From Frankiales bacterium (GTDB lineage Bacteria > Actinomycetota > Actinomycetes > Mycobacteriales > SCTD01): DNA of 64,000 bases. The notes beneath the pieces are model-generated. The model had not been told where the DNA came from. It worked only from the letters and a program-made list of their open reading frames with translations, and did no database searches. The translations under genes were made by a program, and so were the position numbers. The stretch's first letter is position 1, and each line of letters starts with the position of its first letter. The stretch covers positions 85,336 to 149,335 of the forward strand of contig JAODND010000089.1 of the NCBI GenBank assembly GCA_025465465.1. The letters are read 5' to 3'. This document shows positions 3,513 to 60,264 of this stretch, piece after piece.

Positions 3513-3530
3513 TCTCGTAGAAAGTATACG
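3513..3530. promoter_or_regulatory. Putative GntR/FadR operator (motif 1)
   Basis: TCTCGTAGAAAGTATACG upstream of SDR; near-copy at 7813. Confidence 0.6.
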
Positions 3531-3563
3531 AAGCATCGCCGGTGATGCCCAGAAGGAGGACAC

Positions 3564-4424
3564 GTGAGCGGCACGGAGACCAAGAGGATGCACGGCAAGG
3601 TGGCTCTGATCACCGGTGCGGCCCGCGGCCAGGGTCGGGCACACGCGCTCCGCCTTGCCGAGGAGGGCGCGGACATCATCGCTGTCGACATCTGCGAGAC
3701 GCCGGACAGCATGAACTATCCACTCGCTACCGACGAGGACCTGGCTCAGACGGTCAAGGGCGTCGAGGCTCTGGGCCGCCGCATCGTGGCCCGCAAGGGA
3801 GATGTGCGGATCAAGGCCGACCTCGTTGCAACGGTGGAAGCTGGCCTCGCCGAGCTCGGCAGACTGGACGTCGTCGTTGCCAATGCCGGCGTCACCGCCA
3901 TGAACTCGCCCACGCTGCTGCAGGCCTTCGTCGACGGCGTCGAGATCGACCTCGTGGGGGTGCTCCACACGGTGTCGGCGACGCTGCCGCACCTCACAGC
4001 CGGGGCGTCGATCATCATCACCGGCTCGACAGCGGGACTCATGAAGGGTCTCGTCGACAACCCGAAGATCGGTCCGGGAGGAGCGGCCTACGCGTGGTCG
4101 AAGCGCACTCTTGCCTCCTATGTCGAGAGCATCGCGCTGCAGCTCGCGCCAAGCATGATCCGCGTCAACGCGGTGCACCCGACGAACACCAACACCGCGC
4201 TCCTGCACAACGACGACATCTATCGCGCCTTCCGGCCCGACCTCAAGCAGCCGACCCGCGAGGATGCGATGCTGGCCTTTCCGGCGATGCAGGCCATGCC
4301 GATCCCCTACGTGGAGCCCGAGGACATCAGTGCGTTGGTGGCGTTCCTTGCCAGTGACGAGTCTCGCTACATGACGGGTTTGAACCTCCGGGTCGACGCG
4401 GGCGCGATGCTCAAGGGCTCATAG
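3564..4424 (+). CDS. Mycofactocin-coupled SDR family oxidoreductase
   Basis: TGAARGQGRAHA, AVDICE...YPLATDEDL insertion typical of the mycofactocin-dependent SDR clade, YAWSK; RBS AGGAGG before GTG. Confidence 0.85.
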   Translation: MSGTETKRMHGKVALITGAARGQGRAHALRLAEEGADIIAVDICETPDSMNYPLATDEDLAQTVKGVEALGRRIVARKGDVRIKADLVATVEAGLAELGRLDVVVANAGVTAMNSPTLLQAFVDGVEIDLVGVLHTVSATLPHLTAGASIIITGSTAGLMKGLVDNPKIGPGGAAYAWSKRTLASYVESIALQLAPSMIRVNAVHPTNTNTALLHNDDIYRAFRPDLKQPTREDAMLAFPAMQAMPIPYVEPEDISALVAFLASDESRYMTGLNLRVDAGAMLKGS

Positions 4425-4458
4425 CCTCACGCGGCTCGCTTCCTGCGGTCAGCGAGGA

Positions 4459-5886
4459 TCACAGACGTGCGCGCAGCGCCTGGCGATCGATCTTGGACAT
4501 GGCCGTCAAGGGCAGCTCGGGCAGCCAGCGCACCTCCACCGGGTGCTTCCAGCGCGCCAGGCGCGGCCCAAGGAAGCCCATCAGCTCGTCCAGGGACGGC
4601 GCGGGGAGCGTCGGGCGCGCAACGGCGAATGCGACGCCGACCTCGCCCATGATCGGGTCCTCGCGCGCGACCACAGCGACATCCGCAACGGCCGGGTGCT
4701 CGCACAGCGCCGTTTCGACCTCAGCCGGGTAGACGTTGTACCCGCCGCGGACGTACATCTCCTTGCTCCGCCCGACCAGGGCGTACGTGCCGTCCACGCG
4801 GGCCACCGCTCGGTCCCCGGTGCGCAGCCATCCCGCCTGCAGGGTCTCGGCCGTGGCCTGCGGGTCGCGGAAGTAGCCCGCCATCACCGTGGGGGACCGC
4901 AGCCAGAGTTCGCCCGGCTCGTCGACGGGCTGCAGCCGGCCCGTCTCGTCGCGCACCTGTGCCTCGACACCGCCACGTGGCCTGCCTACGCCGTCGAGGG
5001 CAGCTGCTTCGGAGTCGTCGGCGCCCGTGCCCAGGCCGCATCCGCCGGACTCGGTGAGCGAGTAGCGGACCAGGAAGGCATCGGCGAGGCGCTGACGTGC
5101 CTCGGTGACGAGCTGACGCGAGCTGGCTGCGCCGCCCACGACCAGGCGCCGCAGCCGCGGCGGCGGCGTGCGCCGGGCACCCAGTGCTCGGAGGAGCAGG
5201 GCGACCTGCGGCGCGACGGCGCCCAGCTCGGCCATCGCCTCACGCTCGACAACGTCCAGGACGTCGTCCGCGCGCCACCGGCTCAGCACATGGGTGCGCA
5301 GTCCGCGCTGCAGATACCAGGGCAGCTTCGTCATGAACCCGACGTGCGCGAAGGATGTGCTTCCCAACGCGGCCCCGCCCGGCGCCTCCGCCCACTCGCC
5401 ACCGGTGTCGGCCATCGTGACCGCCCGCAGTTGCTCGTCAGCGAACACCGCCGCCTTGGGAAGTCCCGTCGTCCCGGACGTGAACACCAAGATGCCCGAT
5501 GACCGGCCCGGGCGCACGGCACGTCCGGCCCCCTCCTGGGCAAGCGACCGGACATCGTCGAAGCTGCGCAGCCGTACGGCTGGGTCGGCGAGAGCCACCA
5601 GGCGTTCCTGCTCAGCGGGTGCCAGCGCGACGTTGACCCCGGCGGCGACTGCACCGACTTTGGCGGTTGCCGCGTAGGCGATGACGTAGTCGTTTCCGCT
5701 GGGCAGCTGGAGAACGACCCGCTGACCCGCGCCGACACCGCGAGCGGCCAGCGCGGCGGCGACCTCGTCGGACCTGCGGTCCAGGTCCTGGAAGGTGAGG
5801 CGCTCGCCGGAATCCTCCTCGACGAAAGCGGCAGCGTCGCCGAAGCGTTGTGCGGCACCACGGACCGCATCGGCCAGCCAGCTCAC
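4459..5886 (-). CDS. AMP-forming acyl-CoA synthetase (class I adenylate-forming enzyme)
   Basis: FTSGTTGLPK, YSLTES, WLRTGD, RGGYNVYPAEVE, terminal KI motif. Confidence 0.92.
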   Translation of the reverse strand: MSWLADAVRGAAQRFGDAAAFVEEDSGERLTFQDLDRRSDEVAAALAARGVGAGQRVVLQLPSGNDYVIAYAATAKVGAVAAGVNVALAPAEQERLVALADPAVRLRSFDDVRSLAQEGAGRAVRPGRSSGILVFTSGTTGLPKAAVFADEQLRAVTMADTGGEWAEAPGGAALGSTSFAHVGFMTKLPWYLQRGLRTHVLSRWRADDVLDVVEREAMAELGAVAPQVALLLRALGARRTPPPRLRRLVVGGAASSRQLVTEARQRLADAFLVRYSLTESGGCGLGTGADDSEAAALDGVGRPRGGVEAQVRDETGRLQPVDEPGELWLRSPTVMAGYFRDPQATAETLQAGWLRTGDRAVARVDGTYALVGRSKEMYVRGGYNVYPAEVETALCEHPAVADVAVVAREDPIMGEVGVAFAVARPTLPAPSLDELMGFLGPRLARWKHPVEVRWLPELPLTAMSKIDRQALRARL

Positions 5887-5944
5887 GGACCCTGCACCTC
5901 GCGGAGCGCCGGCGGTCGTCGAGAGCCCACGCCCAACACGGTGC

Positions 5945-5960
5945 CATAGTGAGTGCTGTG
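5945..5960. promoter_or_regulatory. Possible degenerate motif 2 site
   Basis: CATAGTGAGTGCTGTG about 60 bp upstream of acyl-CoA synthetase start. Confidence 0.35.
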
Positions 5961-6911: not shown

Positions 6912-6930
6912 TGTTTCCTCCGACTTTTGG

Positions 6931-6943
6931 ATATTGTCTACAT
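6931..6943. promoter_or_regulatory. Putative GntR/FadR operator (motif 1, variant)
   Basis: ATATTGTCTACAT in divergent spacer. Confidence 0.55.
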
Positions 6944-6996
6944 GAGCCGGGATGGGTGATGCAAGGCTCGAGCGCAAGCACTGAGGAGGCGCCGCG

Positions 6997-7809: not shown

Positions 7810-7812
7810 CAG

Positions 7813-7830
7813 TCTCGTAGATAATATACA
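7813..7830. promoter_or_regulatory. Putative GntR/FadR operator (motif 1)
   Basis: TCTCGTAGATAATATACA just before thiolase-like ATG. Confidence 0.6.
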
Positions 7831-7838
7831 GTCATCGC

Positions 7839-8984: not shown

Positions 8985-8992
8985 CCGGAACC

Positions 8993-9211: not shown

Positions 9212-9282
9212 GACCACCATGGACCCTACTGGACCCCCGGGGTCATGTCTGGTGTCCGCCGCACCTTCCGAAAGGACCGCTC

Positions 9283-13119: not shown

Positions 13120-13162
13120 ACGTCCTCCAGGGGCCTGGCCCGGCACGATGTTTCGCGCGCGA

Positions 13163-13182
13163 CTCGTACATACGATATACAA
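13163..13182. promoter_or_regulatory. Putative GntR/FadR operator (motif 1)
   Basis: CTCGTACATACGATATACAA in divergent spacer. Confidence 0.65.
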
Positions 13183-13199
13183 AAAGCGGGAGGCTAGCC

Positions 13200-18340: not shown

Positions 18341-19048
18341 TCAGGCGTCGAGGACGCCGTTCGTCCGCAGCAGCGACACAACGGCCGTCCCCTGCGCGCG
18401 GAGCAGCGTCAGCCACTCCGACTCGACCTGGTCGCGGTCGCGGGCGGTGATGGCCTTGGTGACGGCCGTGATGCCCTTCTTCTGCAACTCGCTGGCGCCG
18501 GGAACGCGCTCGAAGAAGTTGCCGGGAACGATCCCGGTGATGACCCGGGACACCGACGACAGCCGCGGTGACCGCGCCAAGCCGTACATGTGGCGGATGA
18601 ACGCCTCGTTGTGGCGCTGCAGCGACTCGGGGTCTGACGCCCCGCGCACGGCCTTCCGGAGGTCGTTGAATCGGCTGATCTGCTCGTCGGTGCCGTGCTC
18701 GGCGGCGCGTCGGCCGGCCAGGCCGTAGAGCATGCCCAGGATCTCGTAATGGTCGGCGACACTCTCGGTGTCGAGCCCGTTGACGTACGCCCCGCGGTGC
18801 GGCTCGATGGTCACCCAGCCCTCGCGGTCGAGGGCGATCATCGCCTCCCGGACGGGGATGCGACTCACGCGCAGCTCTCCAGCCACGTCGTCCTGGCGGA
18901 TCCGGTCGCCGCGGCTGAGGTGCCCGCTGAAGATCTGCTCCCTGATGTAGCTCGCGACCTGATCGCCGCTGCTACGGCGGTCGAACGCAGCCGCAGCAGC
19001 ACTGACGGGGAAGTCGGGGACGGCGTTCTCCGGCAGCGGCTGGCTCAC
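18341..19048 (-). CDS. GntR family transcriptional regulator (FadR-like, FCD effector domain)
   Basis: wHTH ELRVSRIPVREAM...RGAYV followed by helical C-terminal domain. Confidence 0.93.
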   Translation of the reverse strand: MSQPLPENAVPDFPVSAAAAAFDRRSSGDQVASYIREQIFSGHLSRGDRIRQDDVAGELRVSRIPVREAMIALDREGWVTIEPHRGAYVNGLDTESVADHYEILGMLYGLAGRRAAEHGTDEQISRFNDLRKAVRGASDPESLQRHNEAFIRHMYGLARSPRLSSVSRVITGIVPGNFFERVPGASELQKKGITAVTKAITARDRDQVESEWLTLLRAQGTAVVSLLRTNGVLDA

Positions 19049-20524: not shown

Positions 20525-20555
20525 GGCGGCTCCAGATCCTTGTGACGGGAGACAG

Positions 20556-20577
20556 AAATATACAACATGTTGTAGAC
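20556..20577. promoter_or_regulatory. Putative tandem operator (motif 1)
   Basis: AAATATACAACATGTTGTAGAC; contains perfect 14-bp palindrome TACAACATGTTGTA. Confidence 0.65.
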
Positions 20578-20641
20578 GTCGCAGATCGGTCCGCTCGACA
20601 GACTCGGACCTAGGGTTGAGTGCGGCGCGCGGGGCGGCGTT

Positions 20642-24315: not shown

Positions 24316-24709
24316 TCTCGCGGCAGGACACGCGCCATCCGACAACCGTCCTGACCAGCGTGTCGCGGTAGTGCCCCATCGCCTGCAGCGTCGGGCTCGT
24401 CAAGGTCTGGGTGAAGAACTGCCAGTACGACTCGGCCACGGCGCAGTCGCCCTGCAGCCGGACGGCAGTCGTGCTCACCAGGTGACGTGAGGCGCTGCCG
24501 GGGCCGGCAGTGCCCGCGGCTCGTCGGTCCAGACCGCCCTGACGGATCTGCTCGTGGCCTCGGCGCGGACCTCCGGGCATGTCCCAGTGGGCGTCCTCGG
24601 TGAACAGCTGCACGTAGTCCTCAAGCTCGCCGGCGTCAGCGAGCAGAGCCAGCTGGGCCACGACGTTGCGGATCTCGAGCTCGTCCCGGACGGGATCTGG
24701 GTCAGCCAT
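24302..24709 (-). CDS. SnoaL/NTF2-like family protein
   Basis: DELEIRNVVAQLALLADAG...LFTEDA, RHLVS, GHYRDTLVRT..GWR; GGAGG RBS before ATG 24709. Confidence 0.87.
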   Translation of the reverse strand: MADPDPVRDELEIRNVVAQLALLADAGELEDYVQLFTEDAHWDMPGGPRRGHEQIRQGGLDRRAAGTAGPGSASRHLVSTTAVRLQGDCAVAESYWQFFTQTLTSPTLQAMGHYRDTLVRTVVGWRVSCREITVG

Positions 24710-42202: not shown

Positions 42203-42218
42203 GTGCCGATCCTAGATC

Positions 42219-42234
42219 TTGAATACATTATATG
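42219..42234. promoter_or_regulatory. Putative GntR/FadR operator (motif 1, variant)
   Basis: TTGAATACATTATATG; reverse complement resembles the 24724 site. Confidence 0.5.
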
Positions 42235-43731: not shown

Positions 43732-46602
43732 ATGCCACACGGCGCATCGCGGGACTTCTCAGGGCTGAACACCCGCTTGGTGGTCGACCATGTCCGAGCG
43801 GTGCTCGGCGCGGACGGGGTGGCCGCGCTGCTCTCGGGGGCCCAGGAGGAGCGGCCGATCGAGTTGCTGCTCGACGACACGACGTGGAGTTCGTACGGGC
43901 AGTTCCGTCGCCTCCTGGAGGCGGCAGCCCGACTCCTCGCGTCGCACGGCGGTCTGGAGGTCATGGCCGGGCTGCCGAGCCTTGGGTCCAACCCGTCTCC
44001 CGAGCTTGCCCGCATGATGCAGGCGCTCGGCTCGCCGCTCGCCGTGGCGCTCACGACGACTGACGCGGCGCCCAGCCTCTATCCCTTGCTCGCCATGTCG
44101 GTGGAGGTGCTGGCGCCGACGCACGTCCGCTTCCACCGGCGCGTGCTGGCCGGCCACGAGCCGTTCCCCGAGCTCTGTGCCTTCTTCATCGGACTCGTGC
44201 CGCGCACGGTGCGACTCTTCGGTCTGCGCGTACTCGACGTGAGCGAGGTGCACTGCCAGCTGCGCGGCGACGAGGACTGCGTGACCGAGCTGCGGTGGGA
44301 TGAGACCGCCGACCTGGCGGTGCAGCGGGACCTCATGCGCATGAGGATGGAGATCGCGGAAAGCCGCCTGGAGGGGTTCCAGCAGACGGTCAACGACATC
44401 GTCTCGGCCGACGACCTGGGCGCCGTTCTGACGCGGATCGTGCAAAGCGCCGCCCGAGCGACGACCGCGCCCGGCTTCGTGCTGTCGGTCGACGCGCTGC
44501 CCCACGGGACCGGGATCTTCGCCGACGGGATCAGCGTCGAGGAGGCGGAGCGGGTGCTGGCCGATGCTGACAGCTACCTCTGCGTCGAGGTGGCCTCGGC
44601 GCGGCAGCGTTACGGACGACTGCTTGCGGTCGTGCCGCCCTCGTCCTCCTTCCACGAGCGAACCTCACTGGAGGCCTACGCACGGCTCGCTGCGACGGCC
44701 CTCGACTCCGCGTTCGCGCTGGAACAGGCCCGACGACAGGCGCAGGCGGCCGAGGCGCTGCTGCGGCTGTCGAGATCACTGGCCGACCTCACCTCCTCGG
44801 CGGAGCTGGCGGCGAAACTGACCCGAGCCGTGCCCGACGTGATCGACTGCGACGGTGCCGCGGTGCTGCTCATCTCAGATGGCGTGGCGCGGGTAGCCGC
44901 CCATTACGGCTGCTCGCCTGAGCTCGCCGACGAGCTGGACCGTCAGGAGTTCGCGGGCGATGAGCTGCTCCAGCTGCTCCAGTTGGACCGGCGGACTCCC
45001 GAGGACATGTCGCCACAGGGACGAGCTTTGATGGAGACCTTCGGCTGGCAGGCGATCGCCGCCGCTCCGCTGGAGATCGACGGCGAGACATACGGCATGC
45101 TCATCGCGTCGGTGCGCCACGACAAGGCGCGCATCCTCGACGACGAGAAGCTGACAGACCGCTTCGCGGGGCTTGCAGGACAAGCTGCTGTCGCGCTCCG
45201 CAACAGCCAGCTGATGGATCAGATCCGCCATCAGGCTCTCCATGATCCGCTGACCCACATCCCGAATCGGACGCTGCTCATGGAACGGGCCGAGCAGATG
45301 CTGGCCGACGCTCGAAGCGGTGACGGAACGGTGGCGGCGCTCTTTCTCGACCTGGATGGCTTCAAGGAGGTCAACGACACCCTGGGCCATGACATCGGCG
45401 ACGGGCTGCTGCAGGCGGTCGCCGAGCGCCTGCAGAGCCTCGTGCGCGACCAGGACACGGTCGGTCGGCTCGGCGGTGACGAATTCATCGTCCTGGTCGA
45501 GTGCGGGTCGATGGACTCCGACGTCACGGACCTCGCTGACCGACTCCTCCGAGGCATACGCGCACCGCTCATGCTGCCGGGCTGCGACCGGCCGATTGCC
45601 GTCGGCGCCAGCATCGGCATCGCGATCGGCGACCGTGCCTGCGCCGAGGACCTGCTGCACGACGCCGACATGGCGCTGCACCAGGCGAAGGCCAGTGGCA
45701 AGAACTGCTACCGCGTGTTCACGAGCGAGATCGGCGCCTCGGTGGTCCTGCGCGCGGAACTCGCGGGCGTCGCGGGGCATCTCCCTGGGCATGGCGAGCT
45801 TTCCATCGTCTATCAGCCGATGGTCGACCTCACCACCACGGCGGTCGTGGGGGTCGAGGCGCTGTTGCGCTGGCACCACGATGACCTCGGCCAGGTCTCG
45901 CCGACGACGTTCGTCCCGCTGCTCGAGGAGAGCGGGATGATCGTGGACGTTGGTCGCTGGGTCCTTCGCGAGGCATGCCGCGAGGCGGCAGCGCTCCGCG
46001 ATGCGGGACATCAGCTGACGATGTCGGTGAACGCGTCGGCACGGCAGCTCGAGTGCATCGAGTTCGTGGACGACGTCCGAGCAGCGCTGCGCGACAGCGG
46101 GATCCCGGGTGACGCGCTCGTGCTCGAGATCACCGAGACCGCCCTCGTGCGCGACATCCGCGCCACCCGCGACGTGCTCACCCAGCTCAAGCAGCTCGGC
46201 GTCGGAGTTGCGATAGACGACTTCGGTACCGGCTACTCGTCACTGGCCTATCTCCGAGACTTCCCCGTCGACATCCTCAAGATTGCTCGTGGCTTCGTCG
46301 CCGGCGGAACCCACTCAGCAGCCGCGCGCCAGCTCCTCAGCACCTTCGTCGAACTCGGACGGTCCTTGGGTCTGCGGACCGTGGCCGAGGGCATCGAGAC
46401 GCAGGCAGAGCTGCAGTGGTTGCGCCATATCGGGTGCGACACAGGCCAGGGGTACCTGTGCTCCCCGCCGCTGTCCGCGCACGAGCTCGCCGGCATGCTC
46501 GCCCGAGGGCCGGCACCCGCCCTGCCGGTGCCGGCGCCGCGCCTCGCTGAGCGGCCCGACGGCCGCGGTCCGCGCCTGGTCGTGCACGCACAGGACAGCT
46601 AG
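43732..46602 (+). CDS. H-NOX/V4R-like sensor + GAF + GGDEF + EAL c-di-GMP protein
   Basis: HDPLT..PNR, DLDGFKEVND..GH, RLGGDEF, EALLRW, DDFGTGYSS, VAEGIE; N-terminal C...E.HC...G...C pattern; start approximate (ATG 43732). Confidence 0.9.
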   Translation: MPHGASRDFSGLNTRLVVDHVRAVLGADGVAALLSGAQEERPIELLLDDTTWSSYGQFRRLLEAAARLLASHGGLEVMAGLPSLGSNPSPELARMMQALGSPLAVALTTTDAAPSLYPLLAMSVEVLAPTHVRFHRRVLAGHEPFPELCAFFIGLVPRTVRLFGLRVLDVSEVHCQLRGDEDCVTELRWDETADLAVQRDLMRMRMEIAESRLEGFQQTVNDIVSADDLGAVLTRIVQSAARATTAPGFVLSVDALPHGTGIFADGISVEEAERVLADADSYLCVEVASARQRYGRLLAVVPPSSSFHERTSLEAYARLAATALDSAFALEQARRQAQAAEALLRLSRSLADLTSSAELAAKLTRAVPDVIDCDGAAVLLISDGVARVAAHYGCSPELADELDRQEFAGDELLQLLQLDRRTPEDMSPQGRALMETFGWQAIAAAPLEIDGETYGMLIASVRHDKARILDDEKLTDRFAGLAGQAAVALRNSQLMDQIRHQALHDPLTHIPNRTLLMERAEQMLADARSGDGTVAALFLDLDGFKEVNDTLGHDIGDGLLQAVAERLQSLVRDQDTVGRLGGDEFIVLVECGSMDSDVTDLADRLLRGIRAPLMLPGCDRPIAVGASIGIAIGDRACAEDLLHDADMALHQAKASGKNCYRVFTSEIGASVVLRAELAGVAGHLPGHGELSIVYQPMVDLTTTAVVGVEALLRWHHDDLGQVSPTTFVPLLEESGMIVDVGRWVLREACREAAALRDAGHQLTMSVNASARQLECIEFVDDVRAALRDSGIPGDALVLEITETALVRDIRATRDVLTQLKQLGVGVAIDDFGTGYSSLAYLRDFPVDILKIARGFVAGGTHSAAARQLLSTFVELGRSLGLRTVAEGIETQAELQWLRHIGCDTGQGYLCSPPLSAHELAGMLARGPAPALPVPAPRLAERPDGRGPRLVVHAQDS

Positions 46603-46756
46603 CGTCCGACGCGCCCGGAGGGTGCGACGATCACCGCCAGGTCCGGGCCGTTGGCCATCCTGGGAGGGACCTCCGCGGGTCCCGCTTCGTCCCTGCCAGA
46701 CCGGGCCGAGGCGGTCTACCTGCCTTGTCACAACCGGATGGCGTGCGTAAGGTGCA

Positions 46757-46769
46757 TTTTGTATACAAG
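46757..46769. promoter_or_regulatory. Putative GntR/FadR operator (motif 1)
   Basis: TTTTGTATACAAG (TTGTATACAA core) upstream of ABC operon. Confidence 0.72.
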
Positions 46770-46843
46770 TTGCCGCTCTGTTACCTGTGACAGGCCCGGA
46801 CGGTGGCAGAAACCCAGAGTCTCTACCGAAGGTGATGGCGTCG

Positions 46844-48292
46844 ATGAGGGTTCGCACTAGCCTGGCCGCGGCGGTCGGGGTCGCGATGGCGCTGGCAGGC
46901 TGCGGGACGATGACGGACTCGGCGCTGCACGACCAAGCCGCCCGAGCCGCGCTCGGCGGCGGAGGCGGAACGCAGGTCGGCAGCGGCGCGGGGCCCAGCG
47001 CGACGGCCGGCCCCGGGAACGGCGGGGCGACCGGCACCACGGGTGCGGGTGGCGGCGCGACAGGGAGCAACCTCCCCGGGTCGGGCGGGTCGGGCGGCAC
47101 CACGGGCAGTACCGGCGGACCACAGGTCGGAACCCCGAAGGGGCCCGGTGGCAACGGAGGCGCCACCGCGCTCGGGGTCACGGCGACCTCCATCACGGTG
47201 GGGACCGTCGCCACACTCTCGGGACCCGTCCCCGGCCTCTTTCAGGGAGCGATCGCCGGCACAAAGGCGTACTTCGCGTACGTCAACAGCCAAGGCGGGC
47301 TGTACGGGCGCACCCTGAAGGTGGACGGCAAGGACGACGCGTTCAGCTGCACCACCAACGAGAAGGTCACGCAGGACGCCATCAAGAACGACTTCGCCCT
47401 CGTCGGCAGCTTTTCCATCTACGACTACTGCGGAGCTCAGGCCATCAAGGCCTCGCCAGGCGTGGCTGACGTCTCGATGGCGATCAATCCCGAACACACG
47501 GCGCTGAAGAACACGTTCCCTGTGCAGCCGGTGACGCCGGGCTTCAGGACCGGCGCCTTCGAGTACTACAAGGCGAAGTTCGGTAACGCCTACCAGACGA
47601 CGGGCGCCCTCTACGTCAACAGCCCCAGCGCCAAGTCGGCCTACGACAACGCCAAGGCGACCATGCAGCATCTGGGTTACAAGGTGGTGTACGAGCGGGC
47701 GGTGGCCGCGACGGACAGCAACTTCACCTCCGACGTCATCCAGATGAAGCAGAAGAACGTGAAGTTCGTCGAGATCCTCGCGAATCCACCGATCATCGCG
47801 AACTTCATGGCCGCCGCGGCCCAGCAAGGCTTCAAGCCAGTGATCACCACACCGGGGCAGGGCTACGACCAGGGGACGCTGAGCCAGGGCGGCTCCGCGG
47901 TCGAGGGCCTCTACACCGATACGCCAAGCGCGCTGTACTTCAACAAGGACGACGCGGCGCGCATCCCCGAGGTCGCCCTCTACCAGAAGTGGATGGGCAC
48001 GGCCGCGCCCGGCGTGGCGCTCGACCTGTTCTCCGTCTACGGGTGGGCGCAGGCTGAGCTGTTCGTACAGGCGGCACGCAAGGCCGGCGCCAAGCTGACC
48101 AGGCCGGCGTTGCTGGCGGCCCTGGGTGGCATCCCCACGTTCTCAGACAACATCCTTGCCCCGGGCGGACCGGCTAAGAAGCAGGCCGCGACCTGCTACG
48201 TGCTCACGAAGGTCGTGAACGGCGCCTTCGTGCGGGTCGACAGTCCTGCCAGCAGCTATCGATGCGACGGCACCTTCTTCCGCACCGGCTAG
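46844..48292 (+). CDS. ABC transporter substrate-binding lipoprotein (LivJ/K-like periplasmic binding protein type I)
   Basis: Lipobox LAGC, long Gly/Thr linker, ITVG, AYVNSQGGLYGRTL; followed by LIV permease and ATPases. Confidence 0.9.
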   Translation: MRVRTSLAAAVGVAMALAGCGTMTDSALHDQAARAALGGGGGTQVGSGAGPSATAGPGNGGATGTTGAGGGATGSNLPGSGGSGGTTGSTGGPQVGTPKGPGGNGGATALGVTATSITVGTVATLSGPVPGLFQGAIAGTKAYFAYVNSQGGLYGRTLKVDGKDDAFSCTTNEKVTQDAIKNDFALVGSFSIYDYCGAQAIKASPGVADVSMAINPEHTALKNTFPVQPVTPGFRTGAFEYYKAKFGNAYQTTGALYVNSPSAKSAYDNAKATMQHLGYKVVYERAVAATDSNFTSDVIQMKQKNVKFVEILANPPIIANFMAAAAQQGFKPVITTPGQGYDQGTLSQGGSAVEGLYTDTPSALYFNKDDAARIPEVALYQKWMGTAAPGVALDLFSVYGWAQAELFVQAARKAGAKLTRPALLAALGGIPTFSDNILAPGGPAKKQAATCYVLTKVVNGAFVRVDSPASSYRCDGTFFRTG

Positions 48293-48340
48293 CAGCCGAA
48301 CAGTCGGACGGCCATGCCCAGATCCTGACCAGGAGCCATC

Positions 48341-50230
48341 ATCGGAACTTTCTTCGCCCTGAGCGTCGCCGGCATCGTCTACGGCTGCGTGTACTCCATC
48401 ACGGCGTCCGGCCTGGTGGTCACCTACGCCACGTCAGGCATCTTCAACTTCGCCCACGGAGCGCTCGGCATGCTGGGGGCCTTCACCTACTGGCAGCTGA
48501 CCGTGGCCTGGCACGTGCCACCCCTTGCCGCTCTGGCACTCGTCCTGCTGGTGGTGGCGCCGCTGCTCGGCGCTGTCGTGGAGCGGGTGCTCATCCGGCG
48601 TCTCTACGGAACGTCGTTGAGCGTCACGCTCGTCGTGACGGTCGGGCTGCTGCTCGCACTGATCGGGGTAGCGAACCTGATCTGGAGCCCGGTGACCCCC
48701 AGGGTGCTCAAGCCGTTCTTCCCCAACAGCCTGATCCATCTGCCGGGTGTCAACGTCAGCGCCCACCAGGCGATCGTCGTGCTCGTGTCGCTACTGGTCG
48801 CGGTCGCACTGCGGGTCTTCCTCGCGCGCACCCGGACCGGTGCCACGATGCGGGCGGTTGTCGATGACCCAGGACTGGTCGCACTCACCGGGACCTCGCC
48901 GGCACGCGCCAGTCAGCTGTCGTGGGCGCTCGGCTCCAGCCTGGCCGCCCTGGCCGGCATCCTGCTCGCGCCCTTGGTGACGCTGAGCATCCTGACGCTG
49001 ACGCTCCTGGTCATCAACGGCTATGCGGCGGCCGTCGTCGGCCGGCTGCGCAGCCTTCCGCTGACTGCCGTCGGCGGGCTCGCCCTGGGGCTGGCCGAGT
49101 CCTACTCGACGGGCTATCTCGGCGGAGACCTGCCCAACCTGCTGCGGCCGGCGCTGCCGATGTTCCTGCTGTTCGTGGCGGTCGTCTTCCTCCGCGACAC
49201 GCGCCTGCGGGCTGGTGGCCGCATCGTGGGCTGGAGTCCGCGGGCCGTCGGCCTGGGCGAGTCCGTCCGCTGGTCGTCACTCCTGCTCGTCGTGGCTCTG
49301 CTGGCCGCCGCCCTCGCACCGGGTGGCCTGGTCGACTTCCTGTCGTCGACCTTGGCCATCGGCTTCGTGCTGCTGTCGCTCGTCCTTCTCAGCGGGTACG
49401 CCGGCCAGGTGTCGCTGTGCCAGCTCACGTTCGTCGGGGTCGGCGCCTACGTCATGGCCAAGGTCGCGCCCGGCGGGTCGGCTTTCGGGATCCTGGTCGT
49501 CGTACCTGTGTGCGCGCTGCTGGGCGTTGCTGTGGCAGTGCCGGTCCTGCGCCTTCGCGGCCTGTATCTCGCGCTCGCGACACTCGCGTTCGCCTCGGGG
49601 ATGGACACGATCTTCTTCCTGAACGCCTTCGGCACCGGAGGTGCGATCAGCGTGCCCCGGCTGTCCTTGCCAGGTGTCGACAGCAACCGCGGCTACCTGA
49701 TCCTGCTCACGCTGGCGTTCGCGGCCGGCGCCGTGGGGCTGCTGAGTCTGCGCCGTTCCCGGGTCGGGCGGCGGATGTCAGCGCTGAATGACAGCCCCGC
49801 CGCGTGCGTCACGCTCGGCGTCGGCGTGAACCGGACGAAGCTCGGCGTCTTCGCCGGCGCCGCGGCGATGTCCGGCCTGGGTGGGGTGTTGCTGGGCGGG
49901 CAGGAAGGACTCGTGAGCGGGAACGACTTCCAGATGCTCAACAGCCTCGTGCTGCTGCTCATCTTGACGATCGGAGGGGCGTCCACCGTCAGCGGAGCGT
50001 TGCTCGGGGCCGTCCTGTTCAGCGCGTTCCCGATCATTGCCGAGCACGTGTCCTTCCTCAGCCAGGCCTCGCTGCTGCTGACCGGGCTCGGAGCCGTCAG
50101 CATCGGTCGCAATCCCTACGGCATCGTGGGGGAGGCGTCACGTCGCTTTGCCGCCGCCCGCCAGGCCGGCCGTGGTGCCCTTGCCAGCGTGGTCATCCGT
50201 CCTTCGCCCCTCCGCGACGGTGTCCTGTGA
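48341..50230 (+). CDS. Fused LivH-LivM branched-chain-type ABC permease
   Basis: FNFAHG and GQVSL.Q..F.G.G motifs, many TM helices; start placed at ATC 48341 after AGGAG (ORF-track start GTG 48389 lies inside TM1). Confidence 0.9.
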   Translation: MGTFFALSVAGIVYGCVYSITASGLVVTYATSGIFNFAHGALGMLGAFTYWQLTVAWHVPPLAALALVLLVVAPLLGAVVERVLIRRLYGTSLSVTLVVTVGLLLALIGVANLIWSPVTPRVLKPFFPNSLIHLPGVNVSAHQAIVVLVSLLVAVALRVFLARTRTGATMRAVVDDPGLVALTGTSPARASQLSWALGSSLAALAGILLAPLVTLSILTLTLLVINGYAAAVVGRLRSLPLTAVGGLALGLAESYSTGYLGGDLPNLLRPALPMFLLFVAVVFLRDTRLRAGGRIVGWSPRAVGLGESVRWSSLLLVVALLAAALAPGGLVDFLSSTLAIGFVLLSLVLLSGYAGQVSLCQLTFVGVGAYVMAKVAPGGSAFGILVVVPVCALLGVAVAVPVLRLRGLYLALATLAFASGMDTIFFLNAFGTGGAISVPRLSLPGVDSNRGYLILLTLAFAAGAVGLLSLRRSRVGRRMSALNDSPAACVTLGVGVNRTKLGVFAGAAAMSGLGGVLLGGQEGLVSGNDFQMLNSLVLLLILTIGGASTVSGALLGAVLFSAFPIIAEHVSFLSQASLLLTGLGAVSIGRNPYGIVGEASRRFAAARQAGRGALASVVIRPSPLRDGVL

Positions 50231-50949
50231 GCGCCGACGCCGACATCCCGGCCCTCGAGCTCATCGACGTCCGCGCGGGCTACGGCCGGATCGAGGTGCT
50301 GCACACCGTCGACCTGGTCGTGCCGCCGGGCTCGGTCGTCGCCCTTCTCGGACCGAACGGTGCCGGGAAGACCACGACGCTGGCGGTTGCCAGTGGCCGC
50401 GTGGTGCCGACAGCCGGCTGCGTCCATGTCGGCGGGCGACACGTCAACGGGCTTCCGCCGGAGGCTTTCGTGCGCGGGGGCGTGTGCAGCATCCCGGAAG
50501 GACGTGGGGTCTTTGCCAACCTCACCGTCCGAGACAACCTGAAGCTCTGGAGTCACGGCACCAGCCGGTCCCTGTCCGAGATCGAGGACATGGTGTTCGC
50601 GCGGTTTCCGCGACTGAAGGAGCGCAGGCGGCAGCTCGCCGGCACGATGTCCGGAGGCGAACAGCAAATGCTTGCGGTGGCGCGCGCGGTCGTGGCCGAC
50701 GCGGGCCTGCTGCTCCTCGACGAGATCAGCATGGGCCTGGCGCCGCGCATCGTCGCCGAGCTCTACGAGCTCGTCGCACAGCTCGCCGCGGACGGGCTCG
50801 CCATCCTGCTGGTGGAGCAGTTCGCCCAGACAGCCCTTGCCGTCGCCGACCATGCGGCGATCATGACGTCAGGTGTCATCCGGGCCGTCGGCGATCCCGT
50901 GGACATCGCAGCGGAGCTCGCGGCCGCATATCTCGGAGGAGTGGCATGA
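50227..50949 (+). CDS. livF: ABC transporter ATP-binding protein, LivF-like
   Basis: GPNGAGKTT, PEGRGVFANLTV.DNL, MSGGEQQMLA, LLLDE; GTGA overlap. Confidence 0.92.
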   Translation: MSADADIPALELIDVRAGYGRIEVLHTVDLVVPPGSVVALLGPNGAGKTTTLAVASGRVVPTAGCVHVGGRHVNGLPPEAFVRGGVCSIPEGRGVFANLTVRDNLKLWSHGTSRSLSEIEDMVFARFPRLKERRRQLAGTMSGGEQQMLAVARAVVADAGLLLLDEISMGLAPRIVAELYELVAQLAADGLAILLVEQFAQTALAVADHAAIMTSGVIRAVGDPVDIAAELAAAYLGGVA

Positions 50950-52268
50950 GATCGATTCGCTGGTGTGCACCGACTGGCCTGATCATCGCGGCCTTCGCCG
51001 TGCCGCCTCTGATCCCGGCTGGGACCTCGACGGCCTACGCAGCCGTCGAACCCGGGTCCGGCTTCGCGTCCTACCGGCTCTCCGCCAACGCTCCGACCCT
51101 CAGCTTCACCGAGGACAACGACGGGGCGACCGCACATCCGGAGGCCGAGGGTGACCTGCCCGAGGCGGTCAGCACCCTCGGCAGCACCGGCGGCTCCTAC
51201 GCGCTGTCGAGCGCCGTGTGGCCGGGGGCGCTCGCGGGAAACCTCGGGACCCTGCTCATCGGAGCGAGCGGCGGCCAGGTGCCTGACCAGGCGAGCGTTC
51301 TTGACGATCCGGTTCGCGCCGAGGCCAAGAACAACGAGGGCAGCGTGAGCAACAAGAGCTACCCAGGTATGACCCTGCTCGCGGACTCGCATCCGGCTTC
51401 AGCCTCGGCGTCCGCGCACCTCCAGGGGGCGCAGGCCTCGGCAGCTCTGGCTCTCGGCGACACCAGCGCGGACAGCTCCACGGTGCTGGTCGGCGCCTTG
51501 ACGGCCAAGGCGACGTCCACCGGCAGCCTGCACGACGTCAAGCTGGCGGGCGGTGCCGTCAGCATCGCCTCCGTGCGCTCCACGGCGTCCGTTGTCAGCG
51601 ATGGTCGCAAGGCGACCGGGTCTGGATCCACGATCGTCTCAGGAGCCACTGTCGCAGGGCTGCCCGTCGCGATCGACGGTTCCGGCGTACATGCTGCCAG
51701 CGCGAGTCAGGCGCTTCCAGGTCAGGCGCAGCAGACCGTCAACACGGCGCTCCGCAACCTCGGCATGACCATCGCGCTCATCGGTCCGACCACCTCAACG
51801 AAGGCCGGCACCGTGAGCTACGTGGCAGCCACCCTCGTGGTGACATGGATGCCGCCGCCGGCGCCCGGTGGGCCGAACACCCACGAGAAGATCGTCGTCA
51901 CCGTCGGGGGAGCGTCCGCTGCGGCGTCCGCCGTGCCGGGCTATGTCGTGCCGACCACCGGTGACCTTCCCTCGACAGCCCTGCCGCCGACGCTCCCGGG
52001 CTCCCCGGGGTCGAACGGCCAGGTCGCGCCGCAGCCGAACGTGGGCGGCCCTGTCACCCAGCCCACCCTCGCCGCGGGAGGTGTTGGCCCTGCCATCGCC
52101 CCGGTCAACGCGGCGTCAACCCAGCTGCCTGCGATCCCCGGTCCGCTCGCCGTCGGGTGGCTGCTCGCGGGCATTGCGGCCGCCATCGTGCTCGGACTCG
52201 GCTACCTCCGTCGGCTTCCGACGGCGTTTGCAACGGCGACTGGACGATGCCCGTGGGAGGTCTCTTGA
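50946..52268 (+). CDS. Secreted, C-terminally membrane-anchored hypothetical protein
   Basis: N-terminal hydrophobic signal ending TAYA, Ala/Ser/Thr/Gly-rich core, Pro-rich stalk, TM AVGWLLAGIAAAIVLGLGYL then RR; ATGA overlap with livF. Confidence 0.8.
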   Translation: MRSIRWCAPTGLIIAAFAVPPLIPAGTSTAYAAVEPGSGFASYRLSANAPTLSFTEDNDGATAHPEAEGDLPEAVSTLGSTGGSYALSSAVWPGALAGNLGTLLIGASGGQVPDQASVLDDPVRAEAKNNEGSVSNKSYPGMTLLADSHPASASASAHLQGAQASAALALGDTSADSSTVLVGALTAKATSTGSLHDVKLAGGAVSIASVRSTASVVSDGRKATGSGSTIVSGATVAGLPVAIDGSGVHAASASQALPGQAQQTVNTALRNLGMTIALIGPTTSTKAGTVSYVAATLVVTWMPPPAPGGPNTHEKIVVTVGGASAAASAVPGYVVPTTGDLPSTALPPTLPGSPGSNGQVAPQPNVGGPVTQPTLAAGGVGPAIAPVNAASTQLPAIPGPLAVGWLLAGIAAAIVLGLGYLRRLPTAFATATGRCPWEVS

Positions 52269-52708
52269 TGACCGCGCTCGAACAACCCGGCACGCAGAGC
52301 CGACACAGCTTCCTGGTGCGCCGCATCGCGGCCGAGACCGACGGCGTCCGCCGATGGACGCTGTCGCAGGTGTTCTTCGCTACCGGCTCAGTGGCGATTC
52401 CCCTCGGTCTGGTGTTCCTGGCGCTCGGCTACTGGGGTGTCGCGCACACGACGCTGGTCTTCGACCAGCTGCCGTACCTCGCCTCCGGAGGATTGGTGGG
52501 GCTGGGGCTCATCATCCTCGGCGGCTTCCTCTACTTCGGCCATTGGCAGGTGCTCGCCGCGGAGGAGCGTCGAGCTGAGAGTCGCCGCCAGGCCGAGCGC
52601 GACCAGCAGCTGCTCGCCAGCCTCGACCGGGTGCATGAGGCCCTGCAGGCGCTGGCGGCCCCGTCCTCCCGGCGCGACCGAGCTCCGGGCCGCACCTCCG
52701 CTCCCTGA
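52268..52708 (+). CDS. Two-TM hypothetical membrane protein with charged helical tail
   Basis: Two hydrophobic helices flanking DQLPYLASGG, then EERRAESRRQAERDQQLL; TGATG overlap. Confidence 0.78.
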   Translation: MTALEQPGTQSRHSFLVRRIAAETDGVRRWTLSQVFFATGSVAIPLGLVFLALGYWGVAHTTLVFDQLPYLASGGLVGLGLIILGGFLYFGHWQVLAAEERRAESRRQAERDQQLLASLDRVHEALQALAAPSSRRDRAPGRTSAP

Positions 52709-52769
52709 CCGACCACCTGCGGGTGTCCCGAGACTGCTTGACATCGGCTGCGCAGCCTTCAGAATAAAT

Positions 52770-52783
52770 CAGATATACAACAT
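52770..52783. promoter_or_regulatory. Putative GntR/FadR operator (motif 1)
   Basis: CAGATATACAACAT upstream of livG-like gene. Confidence 0.65.
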
Positions 52784-52819
52784 GCACGATGCATTCTGCG
52801 GAGTGCTCCGAGGCAAGGG

Positions 52820-53638
52820 GTGAGGCGGACGACGACCTTGAGCGCGCCGAGCCCGGTTGACGGCCAGGGCGACGAGCCTACGGACCCGGCGCTGCAGGTC
52901 CATGACGTGTCGGTGGCCTTCGGCGGCGTCCGGGCGCTGGACGCGGTCAGCCTCTCCGTGCAGGCGGGTCAGGTCACCGGGCTGATCGGGCCGAATGGCG
53001 CGGGAAAGACCACGCTGTTCAACGTCATCACCGGCCTGCAGACACCGAACGCCGGCCGCATCGTGCTGCGTGGGCGCGACATCACGGCACGCACTCCGGT
53101 CCGCCGCGCCAGGATGGGGATGGCGCGGACCTTCCAACGACTCGAGGTCTTCGGCAGCCTCACAGCGCTCGACAACATCCTCGCCGCCGCGGAGTTCCGC
53201 CGGGGCTGGGCGCGCGATGGCAGCGACCCGCGTCGGGTCGCGGACGACATCCTCGACAGGGTGGGTCTACGGGAGGTGGCCGGCGAACGCGTCGACGGCC
53301 TACCTACCGGTCTGGCGCGGCTGGTCGAGCTCGGTCGGGCGCTCGCCACCCGCCCGTCCCTGCTCCTGCTCGACGAGCCTGGCTCAGGCCTCGACGGGAC
53401 CGAGAGCGCTGCGCTGGGCGAGCTGCTCGTCGAGACGAGTGCGACCGGGACAGCGGTGCTCATCGTCGAGCACGACGTGGAGCTGGTGATGCGCATCTGC
53501 AGCACCGTGCACGTGCTCGACTTCGGGCGTCTCATCGCGTCCGGAGCGCCGTCGCAGGTCCAGCGGGACCCAGCAGTCCAGGCCGCCTACCTGGGTGCCG
53601 AGGGCGGCTCGACCGCAACCGGCAAAGGCGTGACCTAG
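52820..53638 (+). CDS. livG: ABC transporter ATP-binding protein, LivG-like
   Basis: FGGVRAL, GPNGAGKTTLFN, RTFQ, LLLDEP, EHD, AYLG. Confidence 0.92.
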   Translation: MRRTTTLSAPSPVDGQGDEPTDPALQVHDVSVAFGGVRALDAVSLSVQAGQVTGLIGPNGAGKTTLFNVITGLQTPNAGRIVLRGRDITARTPVRRARMGMARTFQRLEVFGSLTALDNILAAAEFRRGWARDGSDPRRVADDILDRVGLREVAGERVDGLPTGLARLVELGRALATRPSLLLLDEPGSGLDGTESAALGELLVETSATGTAVLIVEHDVELVMRICSTVHVLDFGRLIASGAPSQVQRDPAVQAAYLGAEGGSTATGKGVT

Positions 53639-55415: not shown

Positions 55416-55420
55416 CTCGG

Positions 55421-58886: not shown

Positions 58887-58938
58887 GGCGGCCCCCCTTC
58901 CCCATCGAGGGTGGGACCAGTGGCACCGGGGCGGCGCC

Positions 58939-58954
58939 ACATCATGCATACAAT
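58939..58954. promoter_or_regulatory. Putative GntR/FadR operator (motif 1)
   Basis: ACATCATGCATACAAT upstream of tandem CoA-transferase. Confidence 0.68.
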
Positions 58955-58962
58955 ATGTTCGC

Positions 58963-60180
58963 TCATCTCGAAAGCGTTTGGGGGCGACCGGCACGGGGCG
59001 TGACGGACACCTGCAGCTGCTTCAACCCGCGAAGGTTGCCCTGCAGGGCGCGCACGGCGCCGCCTTCGACGAGCTCCCAGTCTGCGTAGCGCGTGAGGAA
59101 CTCCTCCAGCGCGACGCGGGTCTCCATCCGGGCGAGGGAGGAGCCCAAGCACATGTGCCGCCCGAGGCCGAAGCCGACGTGCCGCTCGAGCGGCCGGTCG
59201 AGGTCGTAGCGCTCCGGGTCCGGGAACTCCCGTGCGTCATGCAGCGCGGCGCCGGTCATGAGCAGCACCCGGTGGTCAGCGGGGATCGTGACGCCGTGCA
59301 GCGTCACCTCGCGGGTGGTCGTCCGGCCTTGGTAGTGGCTGGGCGGGTCCCAGCGGAGCGCCTCCTCGACCGCCTTGGGCAGCAGTCCTGGGTCGGCTAC
59401 CACCCGGGACCGCTCGTCCGGGTGCCACTTGAGGGCGATGATCGCGTTCGAGATGAGCTTGGCCACGGTCTCGTGGCCGGCGAACGCGAGCTCGAGAAAT
59501 CGGGTTCCCAGCTCGGCGTCGCCGGGCATGCGCGTGCCGCCGGCCCCGTCGTCGACCGGCGTCGTCATCAGCAGGCTGACGAGATCGCTTCCGGGTTGGC
59601 GGCGTCGCTGGGAGGCGAGTTCGACGAGCAGGACGGTGAGGCCCTTCGCGGCGACGGCCTCCTCCGGGCTCGCGTCGCGGCCGAGCCCGGACGCGACGAG
59701 TCCGGCGAGATGGACGATCTCGTCACGCAGTTCCAGCGGGATGTCCAGCAGCTCACTGATGACGTGCATCGGCAACCGGATGGCGAACTCATCGACGAAC
59801 TCGAATGTGTCGAGGCCGGCGAGTGGGTCGAGCAGCTCGGCGGCCGTCTGACGGATGAACGGTTCCAGCGCTGAGATGCGCCGAGGTGTGAACAACGGCG
59901 CCACGATCCTGCGGTGCAGGGTGTGCTCCGGCGGGTCCTTCACGATGAGCAGCGGCGTCGCGGCCTCGTCGCCCTCGATGGTGACGCCCTTGGCTGACGA
60001 GAAGGTCTCGTAGTCCAGATGCGCCTCCACGACATCGGCGTAGCGCGACAGCGCGTAGAACTCCAGCTGCTCGTTCCGGTAGACCGGCGCCTCGTCCCGC
60101 AGTCGGGCGTAGACGGGGAACGGGTTGTGGACGATCGCAGCGTCATAGGGGTCGTAGACGAGCTCAGGCCCAGCTCTCAC
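58963..60180 (-). CDS. Cytochrome P450
   Basis: DPPEHT..R, AGHET I-helix, EEALR ExxR, FGLGRHMCLG heme Cys; GAGGTG RBS before GTG 60180. Confidence 0.96.
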   Translation of the reverse strand: MRAGPELVYDPYDAAIVHNPFPVYARLRDEAPVYRNEQLEFYALSRYADVVEAHLDYETFSSAKGVTIEGDEAATPLLIVKDPPEHTLHRRIVAPLFTPRRISALEPFIRQTAAELLDPLAGLDTFEFVDEFAIRLPMHVISELLDIPLELRDEIVHLAGLVASGLGRDASPEEAVAAKGLTVLLVELASQRRRQPGSDLVSLLMTTPVDDGAGGTRMPGDAELGTRFLELAFAGHETVAKLISNAIIALKWHPDERSRVVADPGLLPKAVEEALRWDPPSHYQGRTTTREVTLHGVTIPADHRVLLMTGAALHDAREFPDPERYDLDRPLERHVGFGLGRHMCLGSSLARMETRVALEEFLTRYADWELVEGGAVRALQGNLRGLKQLQVSVTPRAGRPQTLSR

Positions 60181-60251
60181 TCGGGGGCCACCTCGCCGTC
60201 CTGTCGTCACTGTCCAGCCACGCCCATGGCGGGCATCTCGACTTGGTTGCA

Positions 60252-60264
60252 GAATGTATACTGC
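60252..60264. promoter_or_regulatory. Putative GntR/FadR operator (motif 1)
   Basis: GAATGTATACTGC in P450/carboxylase divergent spacer. Confidence 0.6.

Follow-up and report, generated by a model that had tools for sequence, protein, structure and literature searches.

A nearly genome-exclusive palindrome at fifteen intergenic sites of a soil Frankiales catabolic island is the predicted operator of a local VanR-like GntR regulator

The island, its fifteen sites and its regulator

The window analyzed here is a stretch of 64,000 nucleotides (C72:85336-149335, C72 being the contig) from an uncultured soil Frankiales bacterium, whose metagenome-assembled genome (MAG) comprises 3.85 Mb in 115 contigs at 70% GC and is about 90% complete; a search of sequencing runs matched the host sequence only in soil metagenome DNA runs. 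Gene calls by a codon-usage model trained on the host genome, with Pfam annotation on top, yielded 57 genes in the window, with a 60-kb island dense in CoA-dependent, beta-oxidation-like genes. A preliminary description of this DNA had pointed to one AT-rich palindrome recurring at 15 intergenic sites and had proposed that a FadR-type GntR regulator, encoded at 18341-19048, governs nearly the whole island. All 15 cores were recovered, and all 15 sites are intergenic by our independent gene map and Pfam, covering 8 of the 9 divergent junctions, with 9221-9282 as the sole exception. The likenesses claimed within the set proved exact: 20642 vs. 58939 agree at 15/16 positions, 13169 vs. 19078 reversed at 12/14, and 39432-39445 (TGTTGTATACAACA) is a perfect 14-bp palindrome. 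The computations establish that the sites exist, how exclusive and conserved they are, what the regulator is and how it is predicted to fold, and that regulator, motif and enzymes occur together across genomes; judged from this sequence evidence, the 15 sites are very probably operators of a single factor, the GntR protein, which we place in the VanR-like group of the FCD subfamily.

Centering and symmetrizing the 15 sites gave an 18-bp palindromic position weight matrix (PWM) with the consensus CATnwTGTATACAwnATG, the core frequencies being T (0.65), G (0.82), T (0.91) and A (0.94) followed by the mirrored T A C A, with AT-rich arms extending to +/-8. In the symmetrized matrix the outer A/T arms carry information as well as the core, and the operator is about 16-18 bp, longer than 10 bp. 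The two-fold symmetric GT-N(x)-AC core flanked by A/T, which is the operator pattern of GntR/FCD regulators, is present here and in relatives alike. Each site was scored in bits with this matrix, and leave-one-out scores, computed for all 15, range from 10.0 to 24.0 bits. The sites are listed below together with conservation in L135, a soil contig from JGI whose syntenic cluster encodes a GntR of 81% identity; abbreviations are SDR, short-chain dehydrogenase/reductase; ECH, enoyl-CoA hydratase; and ACAD, acyl-CoA dehydrogenase.

3518..3535, TAGAAAGTATACGAAGCA: 28 nt before the start codon of SDR 3564 (+); 13.2 bits (leave-one-out 10.0), weakest member, perfect GTATAC core
6930..6947, GATATTGTCTACATGAGC: divergent gap between SDR 6911 (-) and ECH 6997 (+); 17.0 bits (leave-one-out 13.4), variant GTCTAC core; TTGyCTACA kept in L135
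7818..7835, TAGATAATATACAGTCAT: 3 nt before ATG 7839 of an Ltp2-like thiolase; 17.9 bits, overlapping match at 7811 with 16.0 bits
13169..13186, CATACGATATACAAAAAG: divergent gap between Amidohydrolase_2/CoA-transferase (-) and the ACAD alpha-beta/ECH/ACS operon (+); 20.3 bits; TACATACGATATACAAAA kept in L135
19074..19091, CATACGATATACTGGAAA on the gene strand: 25 nt before the gntR start codon, GTG at 19048; 16.0 bits (leave-one-out 13.4)
20552..20583, ACAGAAATATACAACATG plus an adjacent GTAGAC element (match at 20566): upstream of the MaoC/DUF35/MaoC_N operon (-); 17.7 and 10.7 bits, both elements kept in L135
20643..20660, CATCATGTATACAATCCT: upstream of the AMP-ligase/SDR/thiolase operon (+); 22.8 bits, TACAAT 25 nt from the start codon; kept in L135
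24724..24741, CATAATGTATACGTTGTG: midway between the divergent SnoaL 24709 (-) and AMP-ligase 24761 (+), 51 bp apart; 23.2 bits, TANNNT in both orientations; kept in L135
32016..32033, TATGTTGTATACACTTTG: between the long divergent operons 27266-31978 (-) and 32060-38231 (+); 23.6 bits
39430..39447, AGTGTTGTATACAACATA: between CoA-transferase 39374 (-) and ECH 39467 (+); 24.5 bits, holds the perfect 14-bp palindrome
42215..42232, GATCTTGAATACATTATA: 12 nt before the SDR/thiolase operon (-); 24.0 bits, TATAAT on the gene strand
46755..46772, CATTTTGTATACAAGTTG: upstream of the Liv-type ABC transporter operon 46844-52708 (+); 25.7 bits, best site in the genome
52767..52784, AATCAGATATACAACATG: upstream of the last ABC ATPase gene, 52838 (+); 22.9 bits
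58940..58957, CATCATGCATACAATATG: upstream of the CoA-transferase/Amidohydrolase_2/DUF35/Ltp2 operon (-); 24.6 bits
60250..60267, CAGAATGTATACTGCATC: upstream of P450 60180 (-) and 257 nt from MDMPI/carboxylase (+); 20.7 bits

From the operator edge down to the start codon the distance is 3-71 nt, and a TANNNT hexamer, the actinobacterial -10 pattern, falls inside the operator in 15 of 21 site-gene pairs, at short divergent gaps in both directions. At site 7818 a TACAGT stands only 6 nt from the ATG, which suggests that the thiolase transcript is leaderless. Weaker second matches, overlapping or adjacent, occur at 3511, 6923, 7811, 13162, 20566 and 39437, with a shift of 7 or 14 bp. Part of this pattern is self-similarity of the matrix; the pairs 7811/7818 and 20552/20566 look like real composite operators, and the GTAGAC element at 20566 is conserved in a relative. 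Sites 3518 and 7818 have an upstream CTCGTAGA in common, and at 3511-3535, 7811-7835 and 13162-13186 an extra upstream CTCGTA(G/C)A element is found with a second match shifted by exactly 7 bp. Double matches with the 7-bp shift recur in the loci of relatives, and together with CTCGTA(G/C)A they may constitute extended or composite operators. The segments 20625-20665 and 58922-58962 are alike at 27 of 41 bases, beyond the operator and including an upstream CGGGGCGGCG, with their downstream genes oppositely directed; this likeness may reflect duplicated promoter DNA or an extra shared element.

The genes to which the argument returns are the following.

18341..19048 (-): GntR-family regulator (gntR), 235 aa, N-terminal winged helix-turn-helix (wHTH) plus FCD effector domain, VanR-like predicted fold; proposed island repressor
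24302..24709 (-): SnoaL_4 gene, by sequence reading and Pfam
24761, GTG start (+): AMP-ligase gene, leaving the 51-bp divergent gap to SnoaL_4
30710..31978 (-): unk422, 422 aa, no Pfam or NCBIfam match
37500..38231 (+): unk243, 243 aa, no Pfam or NCBIfam match
43732..46602: GGDEF/EAL gene
46844..53638 (+): Liv-type ABC importer by Pfam, operon 46844-52708 and last ABC ATPase gene from 52838
Right end of the window: biotin carboxylase pair

The CoA enzymes of the island comprise enoyl-CoA hydratases, acyl-CoA dehydrogenases (an alpha/beta pair included), family III CoA-transferases and AMP-ligases, accompanied by SDRs, thiolases, two Ltp2-like thiolase/DUF35 sets and one MaoC pair, as well as two Amidohydrolase_2 proteins, SnoaL-like proteins, a P450, a ferredoxin and an aldehyde dehydrogenase. 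The set resembles a steroid side-chain toolkit, as exemplified by the ACAD alpha/beta pair, the MaoC pair with DUF35, the Ltp2-like thiolases, an EchA19-like hydratase and the P450; no island enzyme matched an NCBIfam profile above its equivalog cut-off. Both unk422 and unk243 are 51-69% identical to genes syntenic with a GntR homologue in many actinomycete loci, where unk243 often lies directly upstream of gntR and unk422 directly downstream, and the two are conserved components of the pathway. Upstream of a 78-aa DUF35 OB-fold open reading frame (54999-55235), 185 bp of uncalled DNA (55236-55420) encode a Cys-rich sequence; the frame probably extends to take in the usual zinc-ribbon, so that 55236-55420 is not a promoter region.

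The regulator itself matches the GntR domain PF00392 (56.4 bits vs. a cut-off of 27; residues 29-89) and the FCD domain PF07729 (38.5 bits vs. 24.3). Its AlphaFold model (predicted local distance difference test score 89.9) shows a wHTH with three helices and a beta-hairpin wing, followed by an all-helical C-terminal domain at residues 94-229 with helices 94-118, 121-136, 140-158, 161-169, 185-201 and 205-229 and a 4-residue turn at 178-181. The VanR group is recognized by six effector-domain helices and no extra helix after the linker (PMC7797058), and this is what the predicted model displays. All of the top 50 fold matches listed are GntR-family proteins, mostly FCD-type regulators; the best are Atu1419 and AlkR, both of the VanR group (E ~1e-9), vs. 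E ~1e-5-1e-6 and a template-modelling score of ~0.4 for FadR structures, and a sequence search of the PDB likewise ranked AlkR best (E = 1.5e-11) and Atu1419 second-best. The predicted fold places the protein in the VanR-like group of the FCD subfamily, apart from FadR proper. In an ungapped alignment with Atu1419, R63 and R67 of the window protein fall opposite R45 and R49, respectively, and the pairs E34/Q52, T46/I64 and G66/H84 differ; both R63 and R67 are invariant in 28 homologues. These 28 homologues contain no conserved His triad corresponding to the three-His (plus Asp/Asn) metal site of Atu1419, TM0439 and PS5454, the only nearly invariant effector-domain His being H100. Since the metal site is not universal in the group, the missing triad does not exclude VanR-group membership.

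By Pfam, this GntR+FCD protein is the sole recognizable transcription factor or DNA-binding domain in the window. The genome has seven GntR-family genes, four of FCD type and one on C72, and tblastn found no paralogue of the window GntR in its own genome. A 97%-identical copy of the regulator is present in a MAG named 'Frankiales bacterium'. Homologues carry generic names only; our literature search found no paper on this GntR orthogroup, and the query TTGTATACAA returned Gateway att sites only.

Exclusivity and conservation of the motif

Equal frequency in coding DNA or at unrelated promoters had been named beforehand as the observation that would reduce the motif to a -10 element. The motif is near-absent from both, and we therefore do not regard it as a plain -10 element. 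The hexamer GTATAC has 28 copies in the 3.85-Mb genome, 7 of them in the window, and RTATAC/GTATAY occurs 12 times in the window vs. 9 intergenic and 22 coding occurrences elsewhere in the genome. In an unbiased test of all 6-8-mers, comparing 3.6 kb of window intergenic DNA with 317 kb of other intergenic DNA, the top word was TATACA (13 vs. 3; Poisson p ~1e-28), with TATACAA at 9 vs. 0 and GTATACAA at 6 vs. 0. When one mismatch at most was allowed, TGTATACA was observed 9 times as against 1.37 +/- 1.19 in dinucleotide shuffles, none of the 100 shuffles reaching 9. The PWM scan of the genome gave the same picture, the ten best matches all lying inside the window. With a threshold of 13 bits, 16 positions matched in the intergenic part of the window as against zero in its coding part (60 kb), and the 305 kb of intergenic DNA on contigs other than C72 gave no match; at 16.3 bits or more, a single match lies outside the window, C72:65034.

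That match (19.1 bits) is the best of a series of weaker ones (10.9-19.1 bits) located upstream of the window at C72 27,800-65,100, all in intergenic gaps. It sits in the divergent promoter of an ACAD gene and AtuA (acyclic terpene utilization), and the others adjoin a SnoaL-like/IclR pair as well as several genes whose sequences resemble those of an esterase and membrane proteins. The scan found no matches on C72 past the right end of the window. The regulon thus probably extends upstream of the window on this contig.

A separate arrangement was seen on contig C57, where 51150-51215 contains a 45-bp palindrome with four GTATAC hexamers, TCATGTATACAAGCGTATACCCTAGGTATACGCCCGTATACATGA, making up four of the GTATAC copies outside the window. 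It is flanked by a TetR-like gene, recognized by its N-terminal sequence (50518-~51150, -), and by a divergent 295-aa gene at 51222 (+), and looks like a separate TetR-type operator. The match at C57:51166 (16.2 bits), considered as an outlying regulon member, belongs to this palindrome and was rejected as part of a different system.

In the orthologous intergenic regions of L135, the operators and the ribosome-binding sites stand out as conserved blocks, with 86% identity inside operators vs. 51% at other intergenic positions (Fisher p = 7e-9); the core of the gntR operator, CCAGTATATCGTATG, is identical, and in the 97%-identical L001 there is a site at -34 of gntR. Beyond these, we examined 42 loci around GntR homologues, most of them 44-56% identical, in Frankia, Actinomadura, Spirillospora, Actinocorallia, Streptomyces, Actinophytocola and MAGs of Acidimicrobiales and Mycobacteriales, with more distant homologues (34-37% identical) in one deltaproteobacterial MAG and one Trueperaceae MAG. 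Homologue loci contain orthologues of the island enzymes (Amidohydrolase_2 70-78%, CoA-transferase 66-70%, thiolase 74-77%, ECH up to 82%, plus unk422/unk243) and are rich in related palindromes with the consensus gATaTTrTATAyAAtATc, whose outer arms, symmetric with A at -8 and T at +8, match the core in conservation. Many of these sites stand upstream of gntR, at a distance of either 14-155 bp or, where they precede the neighboring gene in front of gntR, 830-1010 bp. Where the orthologues of the family III CoA-transferase and ECH diverge in Actinomadura loci and one Streptosporangiaceae MAG locus, gntR follows closely behind ECH and a site is present in the intervening gap.

Because the first sample was selected by the regulator, a second was anchored on the Amidohydrolase_2 enzyme and scored for sites of at least 16 bits. 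The median number of sites per 20 kb was 2.4 in the 8 loci with a GntR homologue vs. 0 in the 72 without (Mann-Whitney p = 1e-6). About 60 high-GC loci of this sample had no site at all, showing that the matrix is silent on ordinary actinobacterial promoters; with the absence of matches at 13 bits or more from the 305 kb of non-C72 intergenic DNA, this rules out a mere -10 element or general promoter AT-richness. In three genomes whose sites have no GntR nearby (within 10 kb), a homologue of 50-53% identity is encoded elsewhere, and five Streptomyces/Streptacidiphilus genomes with site-free paralogous clusters have no GntR homologue at E <= 1e-20. In short loci around the best homologues in those genomes (49-54% identical) a site was found in 5/8, vs. 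0/3 around 35%-identical paralogues. The package of regulator, predicted operator and enzymes recurs in other actinomycete genomes.

Predicted repression and competing explanations

We assign the motif to the local GntR because it is the only factor in the window and has no paralogue, because its predicted fold and the operator are Atu1419-like, and on account of the co-occurrence across genomes and the footprint in L135. Exclusivity and comparative evidence both lend support to the earlier proposal that this protein controls nearly the whole island; we infer the control itself, along with binding, the sign of regulation and the effector. As sites are close to start codons and contain TANNNT, their geometry points to repression by occlusion of the promoter, at the -10 box or transcription start site. 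A GntR dimer would place one wHTH on each half-site, the conserved Arg reading the G of TGT as in Atu1419. Sitting on or beside the core promoter, the bound protein would repress about 15 transcription units, or some 45-50 of the 57 window genes if read as operons, and at each of the eight divergent junctions that have a site, a single operator in the middle (two in the case of 20525-20682) would block both promoters. The repressed set would comprise beta-oxidation-like enzymes, the steroid-side-chain-type aldolase/hydratase/ACAD sets, the P450, the Liv-type ABC importer and gntR itself, whose predicted operator at 19074-19091 suggests autoregulation, in line with the site noticed earlier in its own promoter. 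We surmise that release occurs when a pathway metabolite, plausibly a CoA thioester, enters the FCD domain; by analogy with AlkR, which is released by long-chain acyl-CoA, an acyl-CoA or other CoA-thioester effector is plausible (PMC12042122).

Several points weigh against this reading. The PWM was built from the very sites it scores, and the leave-one-out scores, k-mer test and shuffles mitigate this circularity without removing it. Three sites are weak, with the lowest leave-one-out scores at 3524 (10.0 bits) and at 6934 and 19080 (13.4 bits each). The first comparative sample was chosen by GntR presence and has an ascertainment bias, which the enzyme-anchored sample answers only partly, as GntR presence there also tracks closeness of the enzyme orthologues. 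Lacking the usual three-His metal site, the regulator does not disclose its effector chemistry from sequence. The CTCGTA element common to three sites lies outside what the model explains, and neither the divergent junction 9221-9282 nor the GGDEF/EAL gene has a site. This junction is flanked by a ferredoxin gene (-) and DoxX/ECH genes (+); the 745-bp gap 42203-42947 and the GGDEF/EAL gene at 43732-46602 likewise have no nearby site, and the junction, the gap and the GGDEF/EAL gene may be outside the regulon.

It is improbable, in our view, that another factor outside the window (IclR at C72:31313, or TetR, encoded at C72:82741-83406) or an unrecognized binder (such as the products of 30710-31978 or 37500-38231) reads the palindrome, leaving GntR a bystander or restricted to its own promoter. 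Weaker sites do adjoin the IclR gene (C72:31239, 14.9 bits), unk243 and unk422, devoid of Pfam or NCBIfam matches, are syntenic with gntR in many relatives, and on C57 GTATAC repeats form an operator-like palindrome beside a TetR-like gene. However, motif-bearing loci of other genomes contain no orthologue of the IclR or the TetR gene of C72, on which ground both were rejected as the binding protein, whereas motif presence tracks presence of the GntR orthologue; moreover, the same core is found in the operator that crystallography has defined for the nearest structural relative, and gntR has a conserved site in its own upstream region. We hold it no less doubtful that GntR binds without being a simple repressor, i.e., as an activator, a dual regulator, or a tetramer looping paired sites such as 20552/20643, 91 bp apart, in the manner of Atu1419, itself a tetramer that forms DNA loops between palindromes separated by 190 bp. 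Consistent with such a role are the one junction with two sites at that 91-bp distance, the second overlapping match at several sites, and four promoters whose site lies 53-71 nt before the start codon and could be upstream of the -35 box if leaders are short; yet most sites overlap -10-like hexamers near start codons, the classic position of a repressor, and the characterized relatives Atu1419 and AlkR are both repressors.

That the motif is no operator at all, and instead a special AT-rich -10 promoter element for an island-specific sigma factor or a product of promoter duplication, strikes us as very unlikely. TANNNT is embedded in most sites, and the 27/41 bases shared by 20625-20665 and 58922-58962, more than the operator, hint at duplicated promoter DNA. 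Set against this are the two-fold symmetry of the motif, one copy of which serves both directions at junctions down to 51 bp, the lack of a sigma factor gene in the window by Pfam, the absence of the motif from the intergenic DNA of all contigs other than C72 (305 kb), by which it differs from a housekeeping -10, and the outer arms, which in relatives are as conserved as the core.

With repression by the local GntR as the preferred reading, we offer, as a speculation that we would not bet on, the wider idea that GntR and its palindrome form the master switch of a conserved actinomycete 'catabolon', separate from the KstR steroid regulon, for a methyl-branched, isoprenoid or steroid-side-chain-like lipid, with enzymes below NCBIfam cut-offs together with unk422/unk243, and with the operator doubling as back-to-back -10 boxes. 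The present map offers a testable regulon of about 15 transcription units in a large catabolic island of an uncultured soil Frankiales bacterium, and occurrence of the same package in cultured Actinomadura, Streptomyces and Frankia strains makes it open to genetic testing. The repressor is also a practical way in, given that the identity of its inducer could reveal the pathway substrate.

Relation to known systems

The nearest characterized system is Atu1419 of Agrobacterium fabrum (VanR group, FCD subfamily; PDB 6Z74/6ZA3), whose binding site ATGTATACAT covers -10 boxes and whose Arg45 reads G3 (PMC7797058). It has the same domain architecture as the window GntR and represses a catabolic cluster as well as itself; its operator ATGTATACAT and the island operator agree in the core TGTATACA, its palindromes overlap -10 boxes, and its base-reading Arg45 and backbone-contacting Arg49 correspond to Arg63 and Arg67 of the window GntR. 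However, the two proteins are only ~25% identical, Atu1419 has three full operators (plus one degenerate palindrome inside atu1420) for three genes whereas the island has at least 15 for about 50 genes, and the island operator is longer, with conserved outer AT arms. In addition, Atu1419 has a Zn site of three His and an unusual effector, methylene-tetrahydrofolate; the window GntR is without that His triad.

The palindrome bound by AlkR is ATTGTCAGACAAT, from which long-chain acyl-CoA releases the protein (PMC12042122). We compare AlkR without any claim of orthology: like the window GntR as proposed, it represses a lipid-type catabolic gene, and its palindrome ATTGTCAGACAAT has the same ATTGT/ACAAT arms, but the spacer is 3 bp vs. 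2 bp in the island operator, its single target promoter is that of alkB2, and it is proteobacterial. FadR of E. coli and Vibrio is similar in having a GntR wHTH with an all-helical effector domain, response to acyl-CoA, a multi-operon fatty-acid-degradation regulon and a palindromic GT...AC operator, TGGTNxACCA; it differs in its extra helix and domain-swapped dimer and in its operator sequence, and its fold match to the window GntR is much weaker.

At the systems level, the closest likeness is to KstR/KstR2, the TetR-family regulators of actinobacterial steroid catabolism, where one repressor acts through a genome-exclusive palindrome at many divergent promoters on dozens of lipid/steroid-type CoA-dependent genes, though regulator family and motif are different. 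The host appears to have a canonical steroid-catabolic KstR regulon of its own, separate from the GntR island: the KstR consensus has 16 intergenic matches on contigs other than C72 (C8, C14, C33, C39, C43, C44, C66 and others; six on C8), most of them TAGAACGTGTTCTA-like, and a KshA homologue lies at C21:22516-23157 (276 bits). The only window match to this consensus is the intergenic TACAACATGTTGTA at 20561-20574. It fits TnnAACnnGTTnnA and was considered as a KstR operator; we rejected it in view of the GTT half not being kept in L135 and the KstR-like sites being on other contigs. With a single window match whose GTT half is unconserved, we regard the KstR and GntR regulons as separate, and steroid-side-chain-type enzyme sets can thus stand under a predicted GntR regulon distinct from KstR in one genome. 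Overall, the proposed mechanism is an ordinary one, in that TGTATACA-type palindromes overlapping -10 boxes are familiar from other repressors of the FCD/VanR GntR type; what stands out is the size of the predicted regulon, the exclusivity of its motif, its conservation across actinomycetes and the uncharacterized pathway it would govern.

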